60,749 nt of DNA from an uncultured Enterobacteriaceae bacterium (lineage in GTDB: Bacteria > Pseudomonadota > Gammaproteobacteria > Burkholderiales > SG8-39): the NCBI GenBank assembly GCA_964631735.1, contig CAZVZV010000230.1, forward strand, positions 1 to 60,749, read 5' to 3'. A model generated the notes under the pieces. The model was not told where the DNA came from and did not search any database. It saw only the letters and a list, made by a program, of their open reading frames with translations. This document shows, one piece after another, positions 929-27,729 of the stretch. The position numbers were made by a program, and so were the translations under genes. Every line of letters begins with the position of its first letter. Position 1 is the first letter of the stretch.

Positions 929-1270
929 GTGCACAACCCGAAGGTGAAGGCAGGTATCGCCTGGTACGAGTGTCTCGTCGCGCCCTCGAAGGCGCCGCTG
1001 CAGCCGGCCTACCCGGTCGAGCTCGCGCCGCATCTCAAAGTGCCGGTGCTGGGGCTCTACGGCGGAGAGGACGCCAGCATCCCGGTCGCGAACGTCGAGC
1101 AGATGCGCGGCGTGCTGAAGAGCGCGGGCAACACCACGAGCGAAATAGTGGTCTACGACGGCGCGCCGCACGCGTTCTACGCCGACTACCGTCCGAACTA
1201 CCGCAAGGAAGCGGCCGATGACGGCTGGAAGCGGATGCAGGCGTGGTTCAGGAAATACGGCGTCGCCTGA
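929..1270 (+). pseudogene. dienelactone hydrolase family, C-terminal fragment only (5'-truncated)
   Basis: The 113-aa ORF ...[22 protein letters not shown]...[34 protein letters not shown] matches only the C-terminal third of DLH-type alpha/beta hydrolases. No N-terminal nucleophile region lies upstream. Confidence 0.6.
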
Positions 1271-3580: not shown

Positions 3581-5560
3581 TCACTCGAGCGACCTGGCGA
3601 CACGGAAACCGAGCGCGGTGAGGCGGTAATCGGCAAGGTGCTGGGAGCGGTTCGCCGAGCGTGCATAGCGCGGCTCGAGGGCCCAGGAACCGCCGCGGAA
3701 CACGCGCCGGGAACAGTCTCCGCTCAGCCAGGCGGAGCCGTCGGCCGGCGCTTCCTTGAAGCTTGCGTTCCAGCAATCCGCGGTCCATTCCCTCACGTTT
3801 CCCAGCATATCGTAGAGCCCGAAGCCGTTCGCCCGGTACGAGCCGGCCGGCGCAGTGAAGTATCTGCCGTCGTTGCATTCGTGCCTGCGCTCGCTCGGTC
3901 GCGAAAAAGTTCTGCGAAACGCTGTGCGGTAGGTACTCTGGTCGCCTACATTCTCATGGAGGCAGGCCTGATTGGGATCTTCGCCCCAGTAGCGTGCGGT
4001 TCTCGTCCCGGCGCGTGCTGCGTACTCCCATTCCGCTTCGCTCGGCAATCTATAGGTCTTCCCGGTCTTCGTCGACAGCCAGCGAACATACGCTCCTGCA
4101 TCGTTCCAGCTCACGCAGACCACCGGGTCGCGGTCGGTGTTCTGGTGGATTCCGGGATCGCGCCAGCTTCTTCCCGTCTGCCAGTCGGATTTTGACGCCT
4201 CCCCGTCGGAAAAATTGAACCCGAAGCATCCCGGATTGCCGACGTTACGTTCTGCTTCGGTCTTGTATCTCGCCTCCACCACGAATCGTTCGAACTCGGC
4301 ATACGTGACCTCGTTCCGCCCCAGCGCAAACGGCTGTGCGATCCGCACGGCGCGCAGCGGGCCCTCATGCTCGAAGCGCCCGGCTTCCGACGCCGGCGAA
4401 CCCATCGTGAATTCGCCCGCGGGAATCACCACCATTGGCGGGCAATCGTGGCAGTCGTCAAACACCGTTCCGGGCTTGTGCACCTGGCGCCGAGCCTGTT
4501 CGGCTTGAGCTTTTTCCACCTTGCGGGTTTCCTCGGCCTTGCTCGCGGAAAGCAAGAAGATCCGCGCAAGCTCCACGAACTGCCCCTTGGGGTATCTGTC
4601 GACGTACGCCTGGTACAGCGCAGGCTCTTTGCTGCCCTTGATGCTTTCCCAATAACTCAACTCCACAGCCATCGGGTCGAGCTTCGCCGGCGCAGCGGGC
4701 TTGGCACGAGTGGCGGCTGGACTGGTCACGGCGCGTGGCAGGAAGAAGACGAAGTCACCCTTGTCCAGATAGGGGTCGCGAATCTTGCCGTACTGGGGAG
4801 TCTGGGCACCGCGCGTGTAATTGATGACCGTCTCCTCGAGGAACTGGCTGAGCTCCGAGGCTGTGACGTACCCATCCCGGTTCAGATCGGCTTCGCCGGC
4901 CAGCGCCGCAACGAACTGGCGGCGGAACACACTGTCATCGGGCACCTCCTGATCAGCGGCGCCGGCCGTGATGAACTGGCGAACGGGCTTGGTGGTCTTG
5001 TCCGAAATCGTTGTCGGAACAGCCCGAGAGAGGCTGAAGATCGAACCCGAGAAGCAACTGTCGAACAGAAACAGCGCATGCTTGGCGTCCATCTGCTTAG
5101 CGTAGATCTCGATCTCAAGCATGCTTACTGCTCTGGAGGTGATTCCGCCGCGGCCGCCGCTCGGCAACGGGGTATCAACCGGCACCATGTACCCCATTTC
5201 CTGTCCCTGCGCGCCCTTGAGGGTGTAGCCATGACCGGCGTAGTAGAACAGCAGACGCGCCTTCGGGTCCTGTCCTTGCTTTGCGATGAAGGCACGCATC
5301 GCGCGGTCAAAGCCGGAACGGGTGGGGTCCATCACGGTCGTGACCTCAAAACCGTGCTTCTCGAGGGCGGTCTTCACCAGCGCCACGTCTTTCTTCACTC
5401 CCGGCAGGCGCGGCCAGTGCACGTAACTACTCGCGCCTACCACCAGCGCATAACTCTTGCCGTAGAGAGCAACCTGACCCTTGCCAGTGTCGAGGCGCAG
5501 GACTGCCTGCGCCGGAAACACCAGAACCGTCAGCAACAGGGCGAGATAGCGCATGGCCAC
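3581..5560 (-). CDS. exported caspase-like (peptidase C14) protein with EF-hand loop and C-terminal FGE/SUMF1-like domain
   Basis: Signal peptide MAMRYLALLLTVLVFPAQA. C14 dyad motifs FYYAGHGY and LFLFDSCFSGS. EF loop DLNRDGYVTASE. C-terminal FGE-sulfatase motifs RLPSEAEWEYAARAG, GLYDMLGNVREW, FRGGSW, LGFRVAR. The start is GTG 5560 or ATG 5554. Confidence 0.85.
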   Translation of the reverse strand: MAMRYLALLLTVLVFPAQAVLRLDTGKGQVALYGKSYALVVGASSYVHWPRLPGVKKDVALVKTALEKHGFEVTTVMDPTRSGFDRAMRAFIAKQGQDPKARLLFYYAGHGYTLKGAQGQEMGYMVPVDTPLPSGGRGGITSRAVSMLEIEIYAKQMDAKHALFLFDSCFSGSIFSLSRAVPTTISDKTTKPVRQFITAGAADQEVPDDSVFRRQFVAALAGEADLNRDGYVTASELSQFLEETVINYTRGAQTPQYGKIRDPYLDKGDFVFFLPRAVTSPAATRAKPAAPAKLDPMAVELSYWESIKGSKEPALYQAYVDRYPKGQFVELARIFLLSASKAEETRKVEKAQAEQARRQVHKPGTVFDDCHDCPPMVVIPAGEFTMGSPASEAGRFEHEGPLRAVRIAQPFALGRNEVTYAEFERFVVEARYKTEAERNVGNPGCFGFNFSDGEASKSDWQTGRSWRDPGIHQNTDRDPVVCVSWNDAGAYVRWLSTKTGKTYRLPSEAEWEYAARAGTRTARYWGEDPNQACLHENVGDQSTYRTAFRRTFSRPSERRHECNDGRYFTAPAGSYRANGFGLYDMLGNVREWTADCWNASFKEAPADGSAWLSGDCSRRVFRGGSWALEPRYARSANRSQHLADYRLTALGFRVARSLE

Positions 5561-5576
5561 AACGCCATCATGACCG

Positions 5577-6575
5577 CTATTGATGGCTAAACGATCTCGT
5601 TACCACGATGTCGTCAACACCCGCTTGCGCCGCGAATGCCTGTGGCGTGAACGAAACTCGCTGCCCCGACTCGGCTTGCACCGCGCTCTGCGTACCCATC
5701 TGGATCTTCACCAGGCCTCGCATGGCCTGAGGCGGTATCACCGCCTCACGCACCGGGCGCGAACTCCTTGCAAGGCCGGAGCGAGGAGTCTTTGCCAACT
5801 GGCCGAGAGAGGTTTCGAGGTCTTGGCGCGGTCCGCGCGAGGCGATGAAGAACACCTGCTCGACACCCTTGTACTGATCCAGCCCGTACCAGGCGGTGCC
5901 TTCCGGCACGATGTAAAGCTGGTCGGCGCGCACCGGGTTGGTCTTGCGAGTGGCTGGATCCGGGAACACGCGCGCGACGTACCCGGTCGCATCTACGCCG
6001 ATGACGTAAACGTAACAGTCGCAATTGGCGCGAAACGAGAATTTCACCACATCGCCCTTGCGCGGATCGCTTCCACCATCGCGCAGGACTTCGCCGTCCT
6101 GGATCGGCACCGGATCGGCTCGGCGTGCGGCGCGCTCGCTCGCGCGCTGGGCCAGTATTGCAGCGTCGAGAACGATCGCCGGCATGGCGGTCCCGGAGCC
6201 GCCCTGACCGTATCGCGGGTCCGGATACGGGCTGGGTTGACCCGGGATCGGAGGGTAGCCGGGCTGTCCGCCAGGGGCGGTGGATTGCGCCGGATACGGA
6301 TAATTCGAAGGTGCGCCGCCTTGCGGCTGCGGATACGGGCTGTCCTGCCCGTAGCCGGCTGTGCCCGGTGGCGTGCCGCCCTGGGTTCTCTTGACCATCC
6401 GATCCGAATAGAGGGCGAGCAGAAGGCCCTCGAGTTGATTTGAATACTGTTTTGAATAGTTCTGCGACGCCGCCGAGACGAGGTCTGCGCCCAACTTTAC
6501 CGCCAGCGGTGCAAGCGCGGCGCAGCCCGCCGCGCACGCGAGGATTGTCAGAACGCCAGATCTGATACTTGTCAT
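5577..6575 (-). CDS. probable lipoprotein with P/G/Q/Y-rich linker and C-terminal DUF4384-like domain
   Basis: MTSIRSGVLTILAC (lipobox-like), then a low-complexity GYGQDSPYPQPQGGAPSNYPYPAQ... stretch. C-terminal KGDVVKFSFRANCDCYVYVIGVDATGYVARVFPDP. ATG 6575 is preceded by GGGAGAG. A GTG at 6605 is an alternative start. Confidence 0.75.
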   Translation of the reverse strand: MTSIRSGVLTILACAAGCAALAPLAVKLGADLVSAASQNYSKQYSNQLEGLLLALYSDRMVKRTQGGTPPGTAGYGQDSPYPQPQGGAPSNYPYPAQSTAPGGQPGYPPIPGQPSPYPDPRYGQGGSGTAMPAIVLDAAILAQRASERAARRADPVPIQDGEVLRDGGSDPRKGDVVKFSFRANCDCYVYVIGVDATGYVARVFPDPATRKTNPVRADQLYIVPEGTAWYGLDQYKGVEQVFFIASRGPRQDLETSLGQLAKTPRSGLARSSRPVREAVIPPQAMRGLVKIQMGTQSAVQAESGQRVSFTPQAFAAQAGVDDIVVTRSFSHQ

Positions 6576-6632
6576 TGTTGCTCTCCCACGATGCCAATAT
6601 GCCACGGTTCCCCGCGTGCCGGGCGGCGCGCT

Positions 6633-8111
6633 TCACTGCAGTGTCGAGAACCGCAGCACCGCCTCACCGATGGCGGGCTGCGCGGCACCCGCTTTCCGAC
6701 CCTTTTCACCTGTTGCACCGGCCATGTTGACGCGCACGAGCCCTCGCACACGCTTGATGGTCTCGACGGGATCGGTCCCGATCATGTGCAGCTTTCGCAC
6801 CGGATCAAGCCGAGCGGGCGGCAGCGCGCGCTCGGGCGGCTCGCTAGTGGCAAACACCTGTATCGCTTCCAAGCCGAGCGGCGGCTCGACGGTGAATTGT
6901 CCCAGGGTCTGCCATCGGTTCGCGCCGTCTGCGTGAACACGCCGCACAAAGCGATTGCCGCCCCCTGCCTCCCCGATCTCCATCAGGTAACTGAAGCGCA
7001 GGTTCGCCTTGTCCACGTGTCCGACGACGTAGTAGTACCCGGGCCGATCCAGCTTGACGAGCAGCCGGTCACGGTCGCCCGGACGGTAATAAAGATTTCG
7101 CTGTCCGCGTTCCGTGCGGACATCGACGCCCATGATGTTGCTGGCACCCGCGCCGGCTGGCCTCGCGCCCTCATCGAGCGATTCGATGCGAACCAGTCCG
7201 CGGCTGAGCGCTTCGGTCAATCCGCGCGCCGCTGGCAACGCGCGAAAACCCTGCTCGGCCGCCGCCGGCAGCAGGAACACAAACGCCCGCTCGGTGTTGA
7301 AGGATGCGTCCAGGAGAAAAAGCGTCAGCAGAATTTTCTTGTTGATCTGCTCGTACCAGCCGTCGAGCGTATAACGTATCGCTTGGCCGGGAGTCGATAT
7401 CTGGCCGCTGAGCGCGTCGGCGATCGCGGCGGAGAGCCCCGTCACCTCCGAATTGTCGGCACGAATTGGCGCGATCACCCGAACTCCGGAAACCTTCGCG
7501 TGCTCGAGTTCGAACTTGACGCGCCGCGCCACATCTTTGGCGCCGGCAAGCGGCGACAGGTCCGTAGTGGCCCGGTGCCGGAGCGCCGCTTCATCCCATC
7601 GGACTTCGGAACGGGCGTCGGATGAGAAGAGCTTCAGCACCGCGTCGATGCGCTGGTACTGGTCGAGCCAGGCGAACTCCTCGGCGAATCGAGCCGCCGC
7701 CGATTGACCTGCCCGGATCGGAGCGGAATCGAGTCCGCGCAGGCGTTCTGCCAGCCGTCCGGCCTCGCGCTGGTACGCCGCGAGACTCGCGTCCGTCAGT
7801 CGCGCCTCAAAGCGCAGCTGCCCGGCGTCTGTGCCGGCGCGGACCATTTCGATGCCAATCAGCGGCAGCTCACGCCCAGGGGCCAACGCGCGTGGCAACG
7901 CAACCGCCTTGCCCGAAGCGCTTTGCGGCCGGTGCGCGCCAATTCGCTGCAACCTGTACGCGAGATCCTCTTGCGCCGCCGCCCGGGCCGCCTCTGCCGA
8001 TTTGCTGGAGCCGTGGCCGACGAGAAGCACTGCCGCCCAGGCAGGGGCGGCGACGACCGCGAGCAGGAATGTCGCGAAAAGGACGGACCGGCAAGACTGT
8101 ACGTTTCTCAT
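6633..8111 (-). CDS. exported protein of unknown function with C-terminal DUF4384-like domain
   Basis: Signal peptide MRNVQSCRSVLFATFLLAVVAAPAWA. C-terminal GDRDRLLVKLDRPGYYYVVGHVDKANLRFSYLMEI...LEAIQVFATSEPP. First gene of a tightly spaced three-gene operon (gaps of 27 and 16 nt). Alternative start at ATG 8177. Confidence 0.7.
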   Translation of the reverse strand: MRNVQSCRSVLFATFLLAVVAAPAWAAVLLVGHGSSKSAEAARAAAQEDLAYRLQRIGAHRPQSASGKAVALPRALAPGRELPLIGIEMVRAGTDAGQLRFEARLTDASLAAYQREAGRLAERLRGLDSAPIRAGQSAAARFAEEFAWLDQYQRIDAVLKLFSSDARSEVRWDEAALRHRATTDLSPLAGAKDVARRVKFELEHAKVSGVRVIAPIRADNSEVTGLSAAIADALSGQISTPGQAIRYTLDGWYEQINKKILLTLFLLDASFNTERAFVFLLPAAAEQGFRALPAARGLTEALSRGLVRIESLDEGARPAGAGASNIMGVDVRTERGQRNLYYRPGDRDRLLVKLDRPGYYYVVGHVDKANLRFSYLMEIGEAGGGNRFVRRVHADGANRWQTLGQFTVEPPLGLEAIQVFATSEPPERALPPARLDPVRKLHMIGTDPVETIKRVRGLVRVNMAGATGEKGRKAGAAQPAIGEAVLRFSTLQ

Positions 8112-8227
8112 GACACGCGTCCGGACGTCGTTGCGCCGCTGACCGAGATCCCGGAGGAGCGCCCGTGCTACTCTCATCGGGGTGTCTTGGCGTTCAGTTT
8201 CGGCATTCAACCGAGGAAGAGTAACCC

Positions 8228-8761
8228 ATGGCCAACGTGTTTCGAGTCGTTTTCCTTTGTCTGACCCTTGCAGCGGCGACGCAGGTCTGCGCGCAGACGA
8301 TTGTCTATTCCGTCGATGGGTGGCCACGCATGGGCACCCGCGCTGACGGCAAGCTCGAGGCACACACCTTCTCCTTCAGCGCCAACCGTCCAGCGCCGGC
8401 AGCAGCCGGCGCGCCCGCCGGCCGTGTCAGCGTTATTGACGTCCACTTGGCGATACAGGATGTTGATGCCACTCATCAGTTCCTGCGAGCGGCACTCCCC
8501 GGCCAGCCACTGAAAAGCGTCCTGATCGAAAACCCGCTGCCGAACGCAACGAAGGGAGCACCCGCTCCATTCGCGATTCGGCTCCTCGACGTATTGGTTA
8601 CTTCGATCCAGGGTGGGGTGGGGTACGGCGGCGGCCCTACAACGAACGTCAGCCTTCAAGCAGCAAGGATCGAGTTTTTCAATTCAGTTCAGGGCCCGAG
8701 CGGCAAACCAGGGCCGGTGAATCGGCTCGGGTATGACTTGAGAACCGGCAAAATCTTCTGA
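8228..8761 (+). CDS. secreted Hcp-like (T6SS tube-fold-like) protein with Sec signal peptide
   Basis: MANVFRVVFLCLTLAAATQVCAQ signal. The mature part follows the Hcp1 pattern by eye: FSFSANRP...AGRVSVIDVHLAIQDVDATHQFLRAAL...FAIRLLDVLVTSIQGG...NVSLQAARIEFF...RLGYDLRTGK. Divergent from the 8111-start operon. Confidence 0.55.
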   Translation: MANVFRVVFLCLTLAAATQVCAQTIVYSVDGWPRMGTRADGKLEAHTFSFSANRPAPAAAGAPAGRVSVIDVHLAIQDVDATHQFLRAALPGQPLKSVLIENPLPNATKGAPAPFAIRLLDVLVTSIQGGVGYGGGPTTNVSLQAARIEFFNSVQGPSGKPGPVNRLGYDLRTGKIF

Positions 8762-9009: not shown

Positions 9010-9366
9010 CTAGCTGCCGACCCCGGCATCCGCGGCAGCGCGTGCCAACCGCCGGTCGAAGGTCCAGAGCGGCGTTCGTGCCAGCACGCAACTCGCAAGC
9101 AGATGCGCATCGATATAGCCGAGCCCCTTGCCGTGCAGGCGCCTGCCCACGATCATCGCGAGTACCTCGGGGTCAGCGGCGCGCTGCACATGGGGAAGCG
9201 CGGAAAGCAGGCCGAGCAGTTCGTCGCGATTGCGCAGTTGGCCGCACGCCAGCTCGCCGACGACAAAGGGATGACTGCAGACCTCGGCCGAGCGAAGCAA
9301 TTTCGCGAGCCCCGGCTCTCCCCGCCTGAGATGTTCCACCCAGACGGAGCTGTCCACCAGGATCAT
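9010..9366 (-). CDS. vapC: PIN-domain toxin, type II TA system
   Basis: MILVDSSVWVEHLRRG...HPFVVGELACG...YIDAHLLASCVL has the typical PIN acidic residues (D5, E-containing GEL, D in IDAHL). The start abuts the vapB stop. Confidence 0.85.
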   Translation of the reverse strand: MILVDSSVWVEHLRRGEPGLAKLLRSAEVCSHPFVVGELACGQLRNRDELLGLLSALPHVQRAADPEVLAMIVGRRLHGKGLGYIDAHLLASCVLARTPLWTFDRRLARAAADAGVGS

Positions 9367-9570
9367 TCAGGCTGCGCGGCGGCGCGGAATTCGTCGCAAC
9401 CGGCGTTCGCTTCCGCCGAGGGCCGCCAAACGCTCCGCGCTCGCCTTCGCGATGAGTGCCTCGAGTCCCATGCGCACCAGCTCGGTCTTCGTTCTGACTC
9501 CGGTGAGCGCGGCAGCCCGCGCCAGCGCGGCGCGATCGAGATTCAGAGTGGTCCGGTCTGTTTCTTTCAT
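9367..9570 (-). CDS. vapB: type II antitoxin, VapB-like
   Basis: 67-aa MKETDRTTLNLDRAALARAAALTGVRTKTELVRMGLEALI... lies immediately upstream of vapC (TGA 9367-9369 adjacent to ATG 9364-9366). The longer ORF to 9744 was rejected. Confidence 0.75.
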   Translation of the reverse strand: MKETDRTTLNLDRAALARAAALTGVRTKTELVRMGLEALIAKASAERLAALGGSERRLRRIPRRRAA

Positions 9571-9599
9571 GCATACGATTATGCTCGATTCATATGCAT
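9569..9599 (-). promoter_or_regulatory. inverted repeat ATGCATA-N17-TATGCAT at the vapB start/promoter (candidate operator)
   Basis: Arms at 9569..9575 and 9593..9599 are perfect reverse complements. The left arm overlaps the vapB ATG. Confidence 0.3.
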
Positions 9600-9719
9600 C
9601 CGGCAAGCACCGCCTGGTGCACCACCGGCATGTGGCGCAGCGTATCAGTCGAGCGTATTGTGCAGATGACCAGGCGTGAAAGCGCGATACAGCACCGACC
9701 TCCGGCAGCGCGGCGCTGA

Positions 9720-11600
<1,881 letters not shown>

Positions 11601-11604
<4 letters not shown>

Positions 11605-13571
11605 ACCAGTTTTTCCGTGCCGCCATCCACCGGCACCTGCGCCGCGGTGGTCTTGGCGAACAGCGGCCCGCACATCTCGGCGGCCATTTCGGCCACGTCC
11701 TTCGACGTCACCTCCGTCTTCAGCAGGTTGTTCTTTTTGTATTGCTCTACGGTCAGGTCGTAGGCCTTGGCACGTGAGGCGAGGACCTCTTCGGTCCAGA
11801 GCGCCGTGTCGTAGACGGCATTGGGATGGATGGTGTTGATGCGGATGCCGTCCCTGGCCCACTCCAGCGCCGCCACGCGCGCCAGCTGGTTGAGCGCCGC
11901 CTTCGACGCCGAGTAGGCCGCCGCGCCCATGCCCGGCGCCGGCACGTTCTTCGATCCGATGACCACCACGCGGCCGCCGCGCGGCGCAAGCTTGAGCAGG
12001 CCGTGGCAGGACTGCATCACCAGCAGGTTCGCCTCGACATTGACCGCCATTGCGCTCCTCCACATCTCTGGGGCGATGTCCTTGACCGCCTGGGAGGAAG
12101 GAAAGATGCCGGCATTGAGGACCAGCATGTCCACCCCGCCGAAGCGCTTGACCGCAGCGTCCATCGCAGCCTGGATGGCGTTCCCGTCGGTGAGATCGCA
12201 GGCGACGCCCAGGTAGTCCTGACGCTTGAACAGGTCCGCAATCGCCGGATTGCGATCCAGGCCCACCACCGCGGCACCGCGCCTGAGGAATGCTTCGGCA
12301 CTGGCCTTGCCGATGCCAGACGCGGCACCGGTCACGACCGCGACCTCTCCGGTGAAGGCCGGCGGATTACCGGCTTTCGTCAGCTTTGCCTGCTCCAGGT
12401 CCCAGTACTCGATGTCGAAGGTGTGCTTTTCCTCCAGCGCGCGCCATCCGCCCAGCGCTTCGGCGCGCAGGATGACGTCGATGGTGTGCTCGTACAGGTC
12501 CGCGACGATCGCGGTGTCCTTCGCCGTACGGCCGAACGCGGCCAGGCCCAGTTCCGGGTCGAGCGCCATGCGCGGCGCGGTATCGAGGATGGTCTTGGCT
12601 TGTCTGGCTTGCTTGGCGTTTTTCTCGAAGTAGCCGCGATAGGCAGCGCTGAAGCGCGCCACGTCCCGCCCGAGCATCGGCAGCGGCTTGGTGCGGATGA
12701 CGTGGTCCGGCGTGGCCGGGCCGCGCTGCGAGATGCGCGCCACGTCGGGATGCCGCGCGAAGCCGAGAAAGCGCGGCGAGTCGTTGCACAGGCAAAGCAT
12801 GGGAAAGCCTGCCGCGCGCGAGACCTCATGGCGCATCAGCGCCACCTCCTCGCGTCGGAATCCCCGGGAGGAAGCTGGCGGCAGGCCGATGCTCCAGGCT
12901 TTCTTCGCCTCGAGGTAACGCTCGGCCATGGACACCAGCTCGATCATCAGCTCGTAGGACTCGCGCGCATCCTCGGCGAAAGAGAACACGCCGTGCGACA
13001 ACAGCACCATGCCCACGGTGCTGCTGGTCGCCTGCTTTGGATACTCGCGCGCGCAATAGGCGGCGAGGTCGAAGCCCGCCATGACGTAGGGAATCACCAC
13101 CGCCTTGCCGCCGTAGATGTCGCGGATGCGTTTTTCGCCGTCCGGCGAATTCGACACCGAGAGCACGGCATCGGCGTGCGTATGGTCCACATACTTGTGC
13201 GGCAGGATGGCGTGCAGGATGGTTTCCACCGACGGCGCCGGCGCGCCGCTGCGCAAAGTATGCGTGGCAAGCTCGTTCACCATCTGCGGGTCCGACAGCG
13301 CGGGCAGTGACGCAAGCCGCCGCACGTAGCCCAGTTTCACCGGAGCGAACCCGGCGGCTTCGATGCTCTCCAGGTCCCAGCCGCTGCCCTTGACGTAAAG
13401 AATGTCCTGGTCCTCGCCGAACAGGTTCTTTTCGCTCAGCTTGACCGAGGTGTTGCCGCCGCCGTGCAGCACCAGGGATTTGTCGCGCCCAAGCAGGCGC
13501 GAGGTGTAGACGCGCGGGCCCAGCGGGCCGGAGAATTTCACCGCCTCGGCATCGTTCCACAGGCTTTGCAT
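11601..13571 (-). CDS. bifunctional class II aldolase/adducin-domain + short-chain dehydrogenase (SDR) protein
   Basis: 656 aa. N-terminal aldolase_II-like LHGGGNTSVK...VDHTHADAVL. C-terminal SDR with VAVVTGAASGIGKA, NAGI and YSASKAAL motifs. Confidence 0.85.
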
Positions 13572-25638: not shown

Positions 25639-27729
25639 GTGGTCGTATTGATGGCCTTGCTCGCGGCGGAGCCGCAGTTCGTGCAAGCGCTGCGCAATGC
25701 CCTGTTCGACGGCTACCAGATGCTGTTCCCGCGCGAACGGCGCAGCGCTCCGGCGCTGATCGTCGCGATCGACGAGTTGGCGCTGGAACGCCACGGTCAG
25801 TGGCCCTGGCCGCGCACCAGGATTGCGCAATTGATCGCCGGCATCGCTGCCGCCAAGCCGGCCGCCATCGGCCTGGACCTGCTGTTTGCGGAACGCGACC
25901 GCTTCTCGCCGGCCGAGGTGGCGCAGGAAGTGCAGGAAATGTCGGCCGACGTGGCGCGCCGCCTGCGTTCCCTGCCGTCGAACGACGCGGCGCTGGCCGC
26001 GGCCATACAAGGCCGCAATGTCGTGCTGGGCATCGCCGGCCTGGAAGCGCCGCACCCGCGCTTCCCGCAGCCTCCTGCTGCCGCCCCGGTCCGCATCTTC
26101 GATGCGCCCGATCTCGCGCTGCGGCGATTCGCCGGACACCTCTCCAGCCTTCCGGTGATCGATCGCGCCGCCGCCGGCCGCGGCCTGCTCAGCGTCGACC
26201 CGGAGAGCAGCGTGATTCGGCGTGCCCTCGTCGCTGGGATGGTGGGCGATGTCATCGTGCCGGCGCTGAGCACCGAGATGCTGCGGGTGGCGACCGGCGC
26301 GCCGCTGTCCCTGGTCGGACGCAAGCGTGACCAGATCGAACTCCGCCTCGGCGACATCGCGGTGCCAGCGCATGCTGACGGCCGCTTCTGGATCTGGTAC
26401 GGGCCGCACGACGAGGGGCGATTCGTGTCCGCGGCGAAGGTGCTCGAGGGCAGCGTTGCCGCGGGCGAACTCGAGAGCAAGCTGGTGCTGGTCGGCGTCA
26501 CCGGCCTCGGCCTGCTCGATTACCAGAGCACCTCCCTCGGCGAGCGCGTGCCCGGGGTCGAGATCCATGCCCAGATCCTGGAGCAGATCTATGATCAGGC
26601 CTACCTGCGTCGCCCGGCCGTGCTGCACGCGCTGGAGATGGCGCTGCTCGCCGCCGCCGCACTGGTGCTCGCCTTCGGCGTACCCGCTCTCGGTGTCGCC
26701 GGCTCGATCGCGCTGTACGTGGCGGTGGTGGCCGCGCTGGGCGCACTGGGTGTCGAAGGGTTTGCGCGGGAAGGCATGCTGCTCGACGTGGCCTGGCCCG
26801 CGATCGGGGCCACGATCGTGTTCGGCATCGTGCTGGCGCAGGCATTGAGCGAGGCGGACGAACAGCGCCGGAGTCTGCGGGAACAAGCGGCGCGTGTGAC
26901 CGGTGAGCTGGAATCCGCCCGCCGCATCCAGATGGGCCTGCTGCCGGTGCCCGGCATTCTGTTCGCGCGCGAAACGCGCTTCGACATCGAGGCGCACCTG
27001 GAGCCCGCGCGCACGGTAGGCGGTGATTTCTACGATTGCTTCATGATCGACGCGCACCGGCTGTTCTTCATCGTTGCCGATGTGTCCGGCAAGGGCCTGC
27101 CGGCGAGCCTGTTCATGGCGCTGTCCAAGACCCTGCTGAAGAGCGCGGCGCGGCGCGCGGATGACGTCGGCGGCCTGCTGGTGCGGGCCAATGCCGAGGT
27201 GTCCAGCGAGAACCCGGAATCGCTGTTCATCACCGCTTTTGCCGGAATCCTGGACACGCGCACCGGCGTGCTCGAATTCAGCAATGCGGGGCATGAGCCG
27301 CCGTTCGCGCGGCGCCCGGGCGGCAGGCTGGCACGCCTGGAGCATTCGGGCGGGCCCCCGCTGTGCGTGGTGGAGAACTACGCCTATCCGGTGGAGTCCC
27401 ACCAGGTGACCGCCGGCGAATGGATCTGCGTGGTTACCGATGGCGTCACTGAAGCGATGAACGCAGCCGGGAAATTGTACGGCGTGGCCCGCCTGCACTC
27501 GGTCCTGCAGACACTGCCGGAACACATCGCGCCCGCCGCCCTGCTGTCCGCGGTGCGCGCCGACGTAGCGCGCTACGTCGGCGCTGCCGAACCCTCGGAC
27601 GACCTGACCCTGCTGTGCGTGCGCTGGAACGGCCGCGCCGCAGCGGCGCCCGGCGGCGAGGAATTAACGGACGCTGACCTCGACCCGCCGGTTGCGGGGC
27701 TCGGGGACTTCGTCGTCGGTCGGCACTAG
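25639..27729 (+). CDS. CHASE2 sensor domain - transmembrane - PP2C/SpoIIE serine phosphatase (RsbU-like)
   Basis: The N-terminal ~330 aa are CHASE2-like (IVAIDELALERHGQWPWPR...GLDLLFAE...D.DGV-type region). Then three TM helices, then RRIQMGLLP...GGDFYD...VADVSGKGLPASLFM...TDGVTEA...DDLTLLCVRW. The exact start is uncertain. Confidence 0.8.
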   Translation: MVVLMALLAAEPQFVQALRNALFDGYQMLFPRERRSAPALIVAIDELALERHGQWPWPRTRIAQLIAGIAAAKPAAIGLDLLFAERDRFSPAEVAQEVQEMSADVARRLRSLPSNDAALAAAIQGRNVVLGIAGLEAPHPRFPQPPAAAPVRIFDAPDLALRRFAGHLSSLPVIDRAAAGRGLLSVDPESSVIRRALVAGMVGDVIVPALSTEMLRVATGAPLSLVGRKRDQIELRLGDIAVPAHADGRFWIWYGPHDEGRFVSAAKVLEGSVAAGELESKLVLVGVTGLGLLDYQSTSLGERVPGVEIHAQILEQIYDQAYLRRPAVLHALEMALLAAAALVLAFGVPALGVAGSIALYVAVVAALGALGVEGFAREGMLLDVAWPAIGATIVFGIVLAQALSEADEQRRSLREQAARVTGELESARRIQMGLLPVPGILFARETRFDIEAHLEPARTVGGDFYDCFMIDAHRLFFIVADVSGKGLPASLFMALSKTLLKSAARRADDVGGLLVRANAEVSSENPESLFITAFAGILDTRTGVLEFSNAGHEPPFARRPGGRLARLEHSGGPPLCVVENYAYPVESHQVTAGEWICVVTDGVTEAMNAAGKLYGVARLHSVLQTLPEHIAPAALLSAVRADVARYVGAAEPSDDLTLLCVRWNGRAAAAPGGEELTDADLDPPVAGLGDFVVGRH

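Follow-up and report, generated by a model that had tools for sequence, protein, structure and literature searches.

What would a bacterium do with a caspase-like protease that carries an export signal, and whose gene lies beside that of an export-signalled protein with the fold of Hcp, the tube protein of type VI secretion systems (T6SS)? The question is raised by four genes of an uncultured bacterium assigned to Burkholderiales, at positions 3581 to 8761 of contig CAZVZV010000230.1, whose 60,749 nucleotides (nt), read on the forward strand, are called here the window. Three of the genes, on the minus strand, encode a protein of 492 amino acids (aa), a lipoprotein with a DUF4384 domain, and a 659-aa protein that joins a caspase domain to a domain with the fold of formylglycine-generating enzyme (FGE); the fourth, on the plus strand, encodes a 177-aa Hcp-like protein. 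A preliminary description of the window had placed the four genes, with gaps of 16, 27 and 116 nt between them, and these positions are confirmed. Judging from sequence comparisons and predicted structures, we give roughly even odds to the explanation that we consider best: the locus would be a reduced variant of a rare envelope module built around the exported protease, working along the lines outlined further below.

Homologues of the 659-aa protein number more than 3,695; the combination of a C14 (caspase) domain with an FGE domain is very common among them and occurs in varied gene contexts, and is therefore not a suitable anchor for the module. The locus search was anchored on the 492-aa protein (P492 in the gene orders below), and all module proteins were mapped by tblastn on all loci, duplicates being removed. 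A scan of one genome per species, over 185,579 species, yields 6 loci, mostly from Burkholderiales, and a metagenome scan yields 28 loci with the 492-aa protein: the module appears to be rare and restricted to one lineage, mostly soil Burkholderiales. The gene families are co-localised in about two dozen related soil-bacterial contigs. The gene of the lipoprotein follows that of the 492-aa protein in 20 of 20 non-redundant loci, and this pair is the conserved core. Thirteen loci extend 2.5 kb or more past the lipoprotein gene and count as evaluable; 12 of the 13 have a caspase gene and one to three Hcp-like genes in the cluster or within about 5.5 kb of it. The idea that the four families are neighbours in other genomes is thus borne out, though mostly in one clade.

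The related loci that were compared with the window are designated by L-numbers, such as L004 or L026. Their gene orders fall into these arrangements, in which C14a stands for the type of caspase found in the window and C14b for a second type:

Type A: (gp19-like) > P492 > lipoprotein > outer-membrane protein > stand-alone C14a > (gp19-like) > Hcp-like > (C14b)
Type B: P492 > lipoprotein > Hcp-like (one to three copies) > C14b
Type C (found in the window and in relatives 73-79% identical): Hcp-like < > P492 > lipoprotein > C14a-FGE

The fuller variants add genes for a β-barrel and for gp19-like proteins, and their Hcp-like gene is part of the operon; next to them, the module of the window is a reduced variant. 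In L017 the open reading frames (ORFs) of the Hcp-like protein and of C14b overlap by 4 nt, and distant Hcp-like proteins retrieved by an exhaustive search are again in a Type B setting, between lipoprotein and C14b (L052, L053).

Three kinds of proteins from these loci deserve a description of their own. Between the lipoprotein and caspase genes lies, in L024 (2420-3154), with homologues in L025, L026, L028, L031 and L038, a gene absent from the window, for a signal-bearing protein of 240 aa that ends in ...GLVY; without a match in Pfam, it is probably a small β-barrel of the outer membrane. The gp19-like proteins, of 330-350 aa (Pfam Phage_T4_gp19, 7.6e-11), are encoded inside or just upstream of the module (L026:5620-6669, L023:8300-9334, L033:136-975, L035:6939-7985, L031:5883-6563), with no copy in the window; a twin-arginine (Tat) motif, …ARRQFLRRTG…LLALGAPALA, is conserved in the five loci. 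C14b (L026:11816-13273, L017:13137-14555) is the other exported type of caspase and shares about 25% identity with the caspase of the window; it has a full-length Peptidase_C14 match followed by a β-rich C-terminal domain of about 200 aa without family assignment; it also weakly matches Peptidase_C25.

The window itself contains the following features:

3581-5560, minus strand: C14a-FGE, exported caspase-like protease fused to an FGE-fold (PvdO-like) domain, 659 aa (Pfam Peptidase_C14 9.9e-21, FGE-sulfatase 2.9e-64)
5504-5560, minus strand: Sec-type signal peptide of the caspase, aa 1-19, read from the sequence; the stand-alone homologue of L024 has a similar N-terminus
4751-5455, minus strand: caspase (p20-like) domain, aa 36-270, with His110 in 5228-5245 and Cys169 in 5045-5065, both invariant in alignment A3
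4853-4888, minus strand: EF-hand-like calcium loop DLNRDGYVTASE, aa 225-236 (Pfam EF-hand_5 0.001, sub-threshold; conserved D, D, T, E)
4445-4693, minus strand: linker, aa 290-372, with a conserved helical motif E..W..I..S...Y..YP.G...A (consensus of alignment A3), common to the caspase-FGE relatives
3593-4444, minus strand: FGE-fold, PvdO-like domain, aa 373-656 (PDB PvdO 5hha 1.7e-57), without the FGE catalytic Cys pair
5577-6575, minus strand: DUF4384 lipoprotein, 332 aa from the ATG at 6575 (Pfam DUF4384 1.1e-14)
6522-6533, minus strand: lipobox AAGC of the lipoprotein, its Cys kept in homologues
about 6186-6386, minus strand: P/G/Q/Y-rich low-complexity linker of the lipoprotein, kept in homologues
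5832-6062, minus strand: DUF4384 domain of the lipoprotein (Pfam)
6633-8111, minus strand: exported 492-aa scaffold-like protein (AlphaFold 2 model; 59 unnamed homologues)
8034-8111, minus strand: signal of the 492-aa protein
7797-8015 and 7266-7484, minus strand: two LPP20/HP1454-like α/β modules of the 492-aa protein (AlphaFold 2 and Foldseek)
6642-7127, minus strand: C-terminal DUF4384-like β-sandwich of the 492-aa protein (AlphaFold 2 model)
8112-8227, no strand: divergent intergenic region between the operon and the Hcp-like gene, 116 nt
8228-8761, plus strand: Sec-signal Hcp-fold protein, 177 aa, signal at 8228-8293 (Pfam T6SS_HCP 23.7 bits)

With a GTG start, the lipoprotein ORF would extend over 5577-6605 (minus strand) and encode 342 aa. 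The start of the 492-aa protein is an internal ATG of a 576-aa ORF, a choice backed by the N-termini of homologues, and the ATG of the Hcp-like gene is preceded by a ribosome-binding site, GAGGAAG. A consensus scan for sigma-70 promoters gives 0 promoter-like sites in the 116-nt region, and a terminator scan gives 8 terminator-like sites against 4.4±1.9 expected; both scans are uninformative.

Are these proteins really exported? The signals of the window proteins were read by eye from the sequence. Three products have Sec signals of the AxA type, read as MAMRYLALLLTVLVFPAQA/V for the caspase, ...LLAVVAAPAWA/A for the 492-aa protein and ...LTLAAATQVCA/Q for the 177-aa protein, where the slash marks the cleavage site; the fourth has the lipobox AAGC. 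Export-type N-termini, again by eye, recur in the relatives and are present in every module product of every variant. The preliminary description had seen such a signal in each of the four products and placed the system outside the cytoplasm, rather than among cytoplasmic caspases of cell death or defence; the first observation holds, and the export signals support the second. The sensing or effector role that it suggested for the system is a hypothesis.

In the protease part of the 659-aa protein, the match to Peptidase_C14 (PF00656) scores 74.9 bits, above the curated threshold of 21.4, and spans profile positions 2-145 of 233 only; weak PDB sequence matches point to the MALT1 paracaspase and to a metacaspase. 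In alignment A3, of 19 sequences in which the relatives are 42-86% identical, His110 (in YYAGHG) and Cys169 (in FDSCFSG) are invariant, and so are the D, D, T and E positions of the EF-hand-like loop, which the stand-alone C14a of L024 carries too. Since they are invariant across 19 relatives, the dyad and the loop are taken as conserved features and not as products of chance.

The match of the second domain to FGE-sulfatase (PF03781) covers profile positions 2-255 of 255, so that it has the FGE-sulfatase fold. Could it also be an enzyme of the periplasm, either PvdO-like, with a role in the maturation of a pyoverdine-type chromophore, or a true FGE acting on a sulfatase, with the caspase as accessory? 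The matches to PvdO speak for it: PvdO (5hha) is matched far better in the PDB than the true FGEs, which come out at about 1e-25, and the NCBIfam PvdO model is matched at 3.4e-72. However, the score of that match, 242.9 bits, is far under the equivalog cut-off of 500 bits; in an alignment to 6muj the catalytic SYLCHDSYC of FGE is replaced by SWALEPRYA (3662-3694), so that the copper-binding Cys pair is absent; and no sulfatase, pvd, pyoverdine or non-ribosomal peptide synthetase (NRPS) genes are found among the genes flanking the module. The domain is, moreover, missing from most module variants, which carry a stand-alone caspase 78-82% identical to the caspase domain of the window, and it is diversified by a retroelement in a relative, as described next. 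A true FGE or PvdO function was rejected on the missing Cys pair, the sub-threshold PvdO score and the gene context, and we give the enzymatic explanation as a whole almost no credence. The preliminary description had listed a C14 domain with an intact His/Cys dyad, an EF-hand loop and an FGE/SUMF1-like domain: the caspase domain, the dyad, an EF-hand-like loop and the FGE fold stand, and the assignment to the FGE/SUMF1 type of enzyme does not, the domain being PvdO-like and devoid of the Cys pair.

A clue comes from L004, where a caspase-FGE protein 47% identical to that of the window adjoins Avd and reverse-transcriptase genes. At L004:10020-11701, Avd, the reverse transcriptase and a 122-nt template repeat make up a diversity-generating retroelement (DGR), whose template matches the 3' ends of three paralogous caspase-FGE genes, in variable regions at 9717-9838, 13365-13486 and 7724-7845. 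The mismatches fall at template adenines in 9 of 10, 17 of 20 and 17 of 21 cases, a bias that is the signature of such retroelements, and the diversified stretch corresponds to where the cysteines of FGE would lie. Retroelements typically diversify sites of binding rather than sites of catalysis, which counts against an enzymatic role. Orthocaspase N-termini have been described on the variable (CLec) proteins of DGRs in cyanobacteria (PMC7517822), and FGE domains up to 71% identical to that of the window occur in proteins that also bear Ser/Thr-kinase domains. The absent Cys pair, the retroelement aimed at the C-terminus of a relative, the orthocaspase-CLec precedent and the kinase fusions together indicate that the FGE-like domain is probably a ligand-binding module of the C-type-lectin fold, and not an enzyme. 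A retroelement was sought in the window as well and rejected: no reverse transcriptase or Avd was detected (best E-values 0.38 and 0.016), nor a second copy of the 3' end of the gene.

The lipoprotein matches DUF4384 (PF14326) with 54.6 bits, above the gathering score of 27, its lipobox Cys is conserved, and the lipoprotein with P/G/Q/Y-rich linker and DUF4384 domain is as the preliminary description had it. In the 492-aa protein, DUF4384 reaches 16.2 bits against the same cut-off of 27 (0.011), which is sub-threshold; one close homologue carries PF14326, and distant homologues score it at 6e-5 and 2e-4. A pairwise BLASTP comparison of the two proteins, with paralogy in mind, is not significant. 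None of the 59 homologues of the 492-aa protein has a functional name. Its AlphaFold 2 (AF2) model, with a mean predicted local distance difference test (pLDDT) of 75.6, consists of two small α/β modules, helical segments and a C-terminal β-sandwich. Foldseek returns for this model HP1454 of Helicobacter pylori (E 1.1e-5, the sole match below 1e-3), with template modelling (TM) scores of 0.20 and 0.36, and the C-terminal domain of LpoB (probability 0.99). With TM-scores this low, the likeness to HP1454 is a lead and not a proof of membership. The 492-aa protein has no Pfam LPP20 match of its own, and a distant homologue matches LPP20 weakly, at 0.0041.

The wider relatives are found in an envelope context, with fusions to SH3_3, PG_binding_1 and PEGA domains and clusters of the form OmpA-DUF4384-OmpA, and proteins in which C14 is fused to DUF4384 occur in L004 and L005. 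In metagenome-assembled genomes (MAGs) of Methylomonas, distant relatives of the 492-aa protein (25-28% identity; about 27% at L020:7855-11758 and L021:182-4249) show weak LPP20 and DUF4384 matches; their cluster contains a 150-aa protein, an SLT lytic transglycosylase, an LPP20 lipoprotein and a TPR protein, with no caspase or Hcp-like gene.

The 177-aa protein was called Hcp-like in the preliminary description on its sequence pattern, and the Hcp fold is upheld by several routes. The match to T6SS_HCP (PF05638) is borderline, at 23.7 bits just above the cut-off of 23.5; the profile of the Hcp-like family finds Hcp1 in the PDB at 4.9e-8; and the AF2 model (pLDDT 72.9) is superposed by Foldseek on Hcp1 with TM 0.70-0.79 and E 1.8e-9. 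All members of the family are longer than Hcp at the N-terminus by about 22 residues, which comprise a basic n-region, a hydrophobic core and the site VCA/Q. No T6SS core genes (TssB/C, VgrG, TssM and others) are found in the flanks of the module or among the ten longest other ORFs of the window, no T6SS genes are seen among the called genes of the related loci, and no sheath, baseplate or spike genes in the flanks or longest ORFs of the window; in the related loci, the neighbours of the tube-like genes belong to the module or to metabolism.

The exported Hcp-like clade is small (30 representative clusters at E<=1e-30). Its nearest relatives are proteins of 1,000-2,100 aa with exactly six tandem Hcp-like domains (P0191, P0192, P0198 and about 30 more), which start, in P0191, at positions 5, 182, 359, 532, 708 and 881, and which are followed by Ig-like and RTX-type calcium-binding repeats. 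We know of no description of such Hcp-Ig/RTX proteins. Their sequences suggest covalent pseudo-hexameric Hcp rings within secreted proteins, and the exact number of six implies that ring formation would be retained in a branch of the fold outside T6SS.

Does the Hcp-like gene belong to the module at all, or is it a neighbour by descent? At the level of the family, an early reading made its presence a mere accident of synteny, on the basis of homologues found beside Ald_Xan_dh/Exo_endo_phos genes without caspases; it was dropped, since two other arrangements place the family inside the operon. For the window the question is more delicate. The three-gene operon alone could be the functional unit, with the divergent Hcp-like gene brought next to it from an Ald_Xan_dh/Exo_endo_phos neighbourhood by a deletion of about 5 kb. 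In L011-L015, Hcp-like homologues 46-50% identical lie between Ald_Xan_dh and Exo_endo_phos genes, and in L009 one lies without an operon; in L016 and L026, an Hcp-like copy is found about 5 kb upstream of the 492-aa gene and divergent from it, as in the window. In a neighbour-joining tree without bootstrap, the copy of the window groups with these Ald_Xan_dh-side homologues, a clade of paralogues at the edge of the neighbourhood, and not with the two clades found inside the operon; the members of that edge clade otherwise adjoin an aldehyde/xanthine-dehydrogenase-type gene, about 5 kb from the operon (L016, L026) or without operon (L009). The arrangement of the window looks like the layout of L016 and L026 after the loss of the intervening genes, and the functional link of this copy is therefore weaker than that of the family, which is strong. 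On the other hand, the two remaining clades of Hcp-like genes are inside the operon, with short gaps or overlapping ORFs, which ties the whole family to the module; the copy of the edge clade is, in L016, the sole Hcp-like gene in the vicinity of the operon; relatives 63-78% identical still have the two transcripts diverging side by side; and L018 shows this arrangement again, with Hcp-like genes from another clade. We hold a unit of three genes to be doubtful.

If the Hcp-like proteins are indeed part of the module, what would they do there? One may go as far as to imagine an envelope machine that has escaped recognition, in which exported tube-fold proteins borrowed from contractile injection systems, Hcp-like (Sec) and, in the fuller variants, gp19-like (Tat), would build periplasmic or surface-borne rings or tubes, their assembly, release or cargo handling being governed by caspase proteolysis on a scaffold of DUF4384/LPP20-like proteins. 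Tube proteins would then be used independently of T6SS and contractile injection, and orthocaspases would gain a defined job outside the cytoplasm. We regard this extended proposal as tentative and, on balance, improbable.

Another explanation makes the protease an assembly factor: a protease of clan CD would cut a segment from lipoprotein or tube-fold precursors, which would then polymerise in the periplasm or at the surface into a tube or fibre of Hcp-like and gp19-like subunits, independently of T6SS. Type V pilins, whose maturation depends on gingipains, and PorU, which acts like a sortase in type IX secretion, are precedents, and the ingredients are suggestive: an exported protease of clan CD accompanied by a β-sandwich lipoprotein, a β-barrel of the outer membrane and between one and three genes for tube folds, a C14b that is weakly similar to Peptidase_C25, and an outgroup whose six tandem Hcp domains imply rings outside T6SS. 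However, Foldseek shows no similarity to the FimA/Mfa pilins, no conserved cleavage site was identified, the variant of the window is without β-barrel and gp19-like genes, and no usher or secretin gene is present. Protease-driven assembly is, in our opinion, decidedly unlikely.

The same proteins could also be read as immunity of the envelope against contractile weapons such as T6SS, tailocins or phage tails: periplasmic Hcp-like and gp19-like mimics would capture incoming tubes, or cargo carried by Hcp, and the caspases would degrade what is captured. Two unrelated tube families, both with export signals and both linked to proteases, invite such an idea, and T6SS effectors with a periplasmic site of action travel inside Hcp rings. 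Yet it is wholly speculative; PADLOC reveals no link to known immunity or defence genes, and T6SS genes are not found nearby. We consider it very unlikely.

A known defence system was sought more generally and rejected: for the window, PADLOC gives its generic 'caspase' model (3.7e-9) and nothing for the other three proteins. The literature searched, on exported Hcp, periplasmic orthocaspases and DUF4384, contains no description of the module either. The absence of a match to a characterised system, on which the preliminary description had counted, thus holds in PADLOC and in that literature, and the module may be considered a candidate for a new kind of envelope system.

The acquired segment of the preliminary description has no support. 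GC content ranges from 0.60 to 0.69 in the module and from 0.56 to 0.68 on either side of it, with no compositional break, and no tRNA or integrase gene is near, so that nothing speaks for a recent acquisition; carriage on plasmids was rejected, tblastn of the 492-aa protein against 72,556 plasmids giving no match. One flank of the module has the C-terminus of guaA, a fragment of a truncated dienelactone-hydrolase gene, a receptor of the TctC/Bug type and a regulator of the LysR type; the other has VapBC, tadA, a transpeptidase of the YkuD type and mtnA. Housekeeping genes such as uvrB, uvrC, lepA and rne account for the ten longest other ORFs of the window. Directly downstream of the Hcp-like gene and before tadA, at 9010-9600 (minus strand), lies a VapC (PIN)/VapB toxin-antitoxin pair. 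The dienelactone-hydrolase ORF at 929-1270 (plus strand), which matches profile positions 117-216 of 217 only, is probably a truncated remnant, and hints at a past rearrangement between guaA and the module; this fragment and the nearby VapBC do no more than hint at a variable region between guaA and tadA. Unrelated to the module, a single protein at 25639-27729 (plus strand) combines a CHASE2 sensor with a SpoIIE-type phosphatase domain.

We now return to the envelope module and to how it might work. The lipoprotein would be tethered to a membrane, probably the outer membrane since an Ala follows the lipobox Cys, and would reach into the periplasm on its linker of roughly 70 P/G/Q/Y-rich residues. 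Together with the 492-aa protein it could form a scaffold under the membrane, a reading suggested by the matches of the 492-aa model to HP1454 and LpoB, and by the interactions of HP1454 and Lpp20 with the envelope ring proteins FlgP and FapH (PMC11756786). The DUF4384 β-sandwiches of both proteins would dock the protease, be cleaved by it, or both: the C14-DUF4384 fusions of L004 and L005 argue for this, and so does Craspase, since a preprint on that system reports that DUF4384 is often fused to protease domains and is the C-terminal domain of some Csx30 proteins, the substrates of the caspase-like Csx29. Like other orthocaspases, the protease would probably depend on calcium and be specific for basic residues. 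In the version of the window, the fused PvdO-like domain of C-type-lectin fold may supply the recognition of a ligand or target. The exported Hcp-fold protein, probably a ring, would be a partner, a cargo holder or a substrate of the proteolytic complex, and the likeliest output would be the processing of envelope or surface proteins.

Several observations weigh against this explanation. Nearly all informative loci belong to one clade, with 492-aa proteins at least 50% identical, mostly annotated as Burkholderiales MAGs or soil metagenome contigs, and they often have flanking genes in common (TctC, 3-hydroxyacyl-CoA dehydrogenase, an aldehyde/xanthine-dehydrogenase cluster). For this reason they do not count as independent samples, and inherited synteny could account for some of the linkage. 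In L029 there are only the genes of the 492-aa protein and of the lipoprotein, and the Hcp-like gene of L009 does without the operon. Near the distant relatives of the 492-aa protein (25-30% identity, from Methylomonas and a spirochaete), no Hcp-like or gp19-like genes are found, and mostly no caspase; a hidden Markov model search of all ORFs in L019-L021 and L040-L049 finds no tube-like genes. The Hcp-like copy of the window is of the 'outside' clade, as far as an unbootstrapped neighbour-joining tree can place it. The export signals rest on judgement by eye, confidence in the AF2 models is moderate (pLDDT 73-76), the DUF4384 domain of the 492-aa protein is below the Pfam threshold, and the TM-scores of its HP1454 match (0.20 and 0.36) are low.

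Bacterial homologues of caspases are widespread, and almost none has a known substrate or role; a compact exported caspase with very few candidate partners or substrates, namely two DUF4384 proteins and an Hcp-fold protein, is a case that can be tested directly. Specialists of T6SS and contractile injection would not expect Hcp and gp19 folds with Sec and Tat signals, genetically tied to proteases. The second domain of the caspase-'FGE-sulfatase' fusion, finally, is suggested to be a binding module and not an enzyme that matures sulfatases.

Each part of the module can be set against a known system. The T6SS Hcp has the same fold as the 177-aa protein, with weak but significant sequence homology, whereas the latter has a Sec signal of the cleavable type (by eye) and no T6SS genes nearby. 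The best structural match of the 492-aa protein, HP1454, is a secreted multi-domain α/β protein of the lpp20 operon of Helicobacter pylori which, like Lpp20, binds envelope ring proteins such as FlgP; the 492-aa protein differs by its low TM-scores, its lack of a Pfam LPP20 match, an added DUF4384-like β-sandwich and the absence of a flagellar context. PvdO (5hha), by sequence the closest solved structure to the FGE-like domain, is periplasmic, and presumably also without the catalytic cysteines of FGE; the domain of the window is, in contrast, fused to a caspase, falls under the equivalog cut-off, and has no pyoverdine genes around it.

For the protease and its partners as a whole, clan CD proteases of Bacteroidota (gingipains, PorU) process lipoprotein or secreted precursors outside the cytoplasm, and the FGE-like domain matches PorK/GldK at 1.9e-33 (NCBIfam) and about 5e-18 (PDB); however, there are no type IX secretion or pilin genes here, and the protease is of family C14 and not C25, so that the analogy is one of mechanism only. 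Craspase (type III-E CRISPR, Csx29/Csx30) likewise pairs a caspase-like protease with a separately encoded partner whose C-terminal domain can be DUF4384, but it is cytoplasmic, RNA-guided and of the CHAT type, whereas the window has no CRISPR genes and all its products carry export signals. The closest in architecture are the orthocaspase-FGE fusions, which have the same two domains as the 659-aa protein and which have been reported as recurrent, with no function assigned, since 2012 (PMC3501461); the preliminary description, too, mentioned their recurrence in genome surveys. The protein of the window departs from them in that it has no retroelement beside it, that the same caspase exists without its FGE domain in sister loci, and that it combines a Sec signal with a conserved operon of two DUF4384 proteins and Hcp-like genes.

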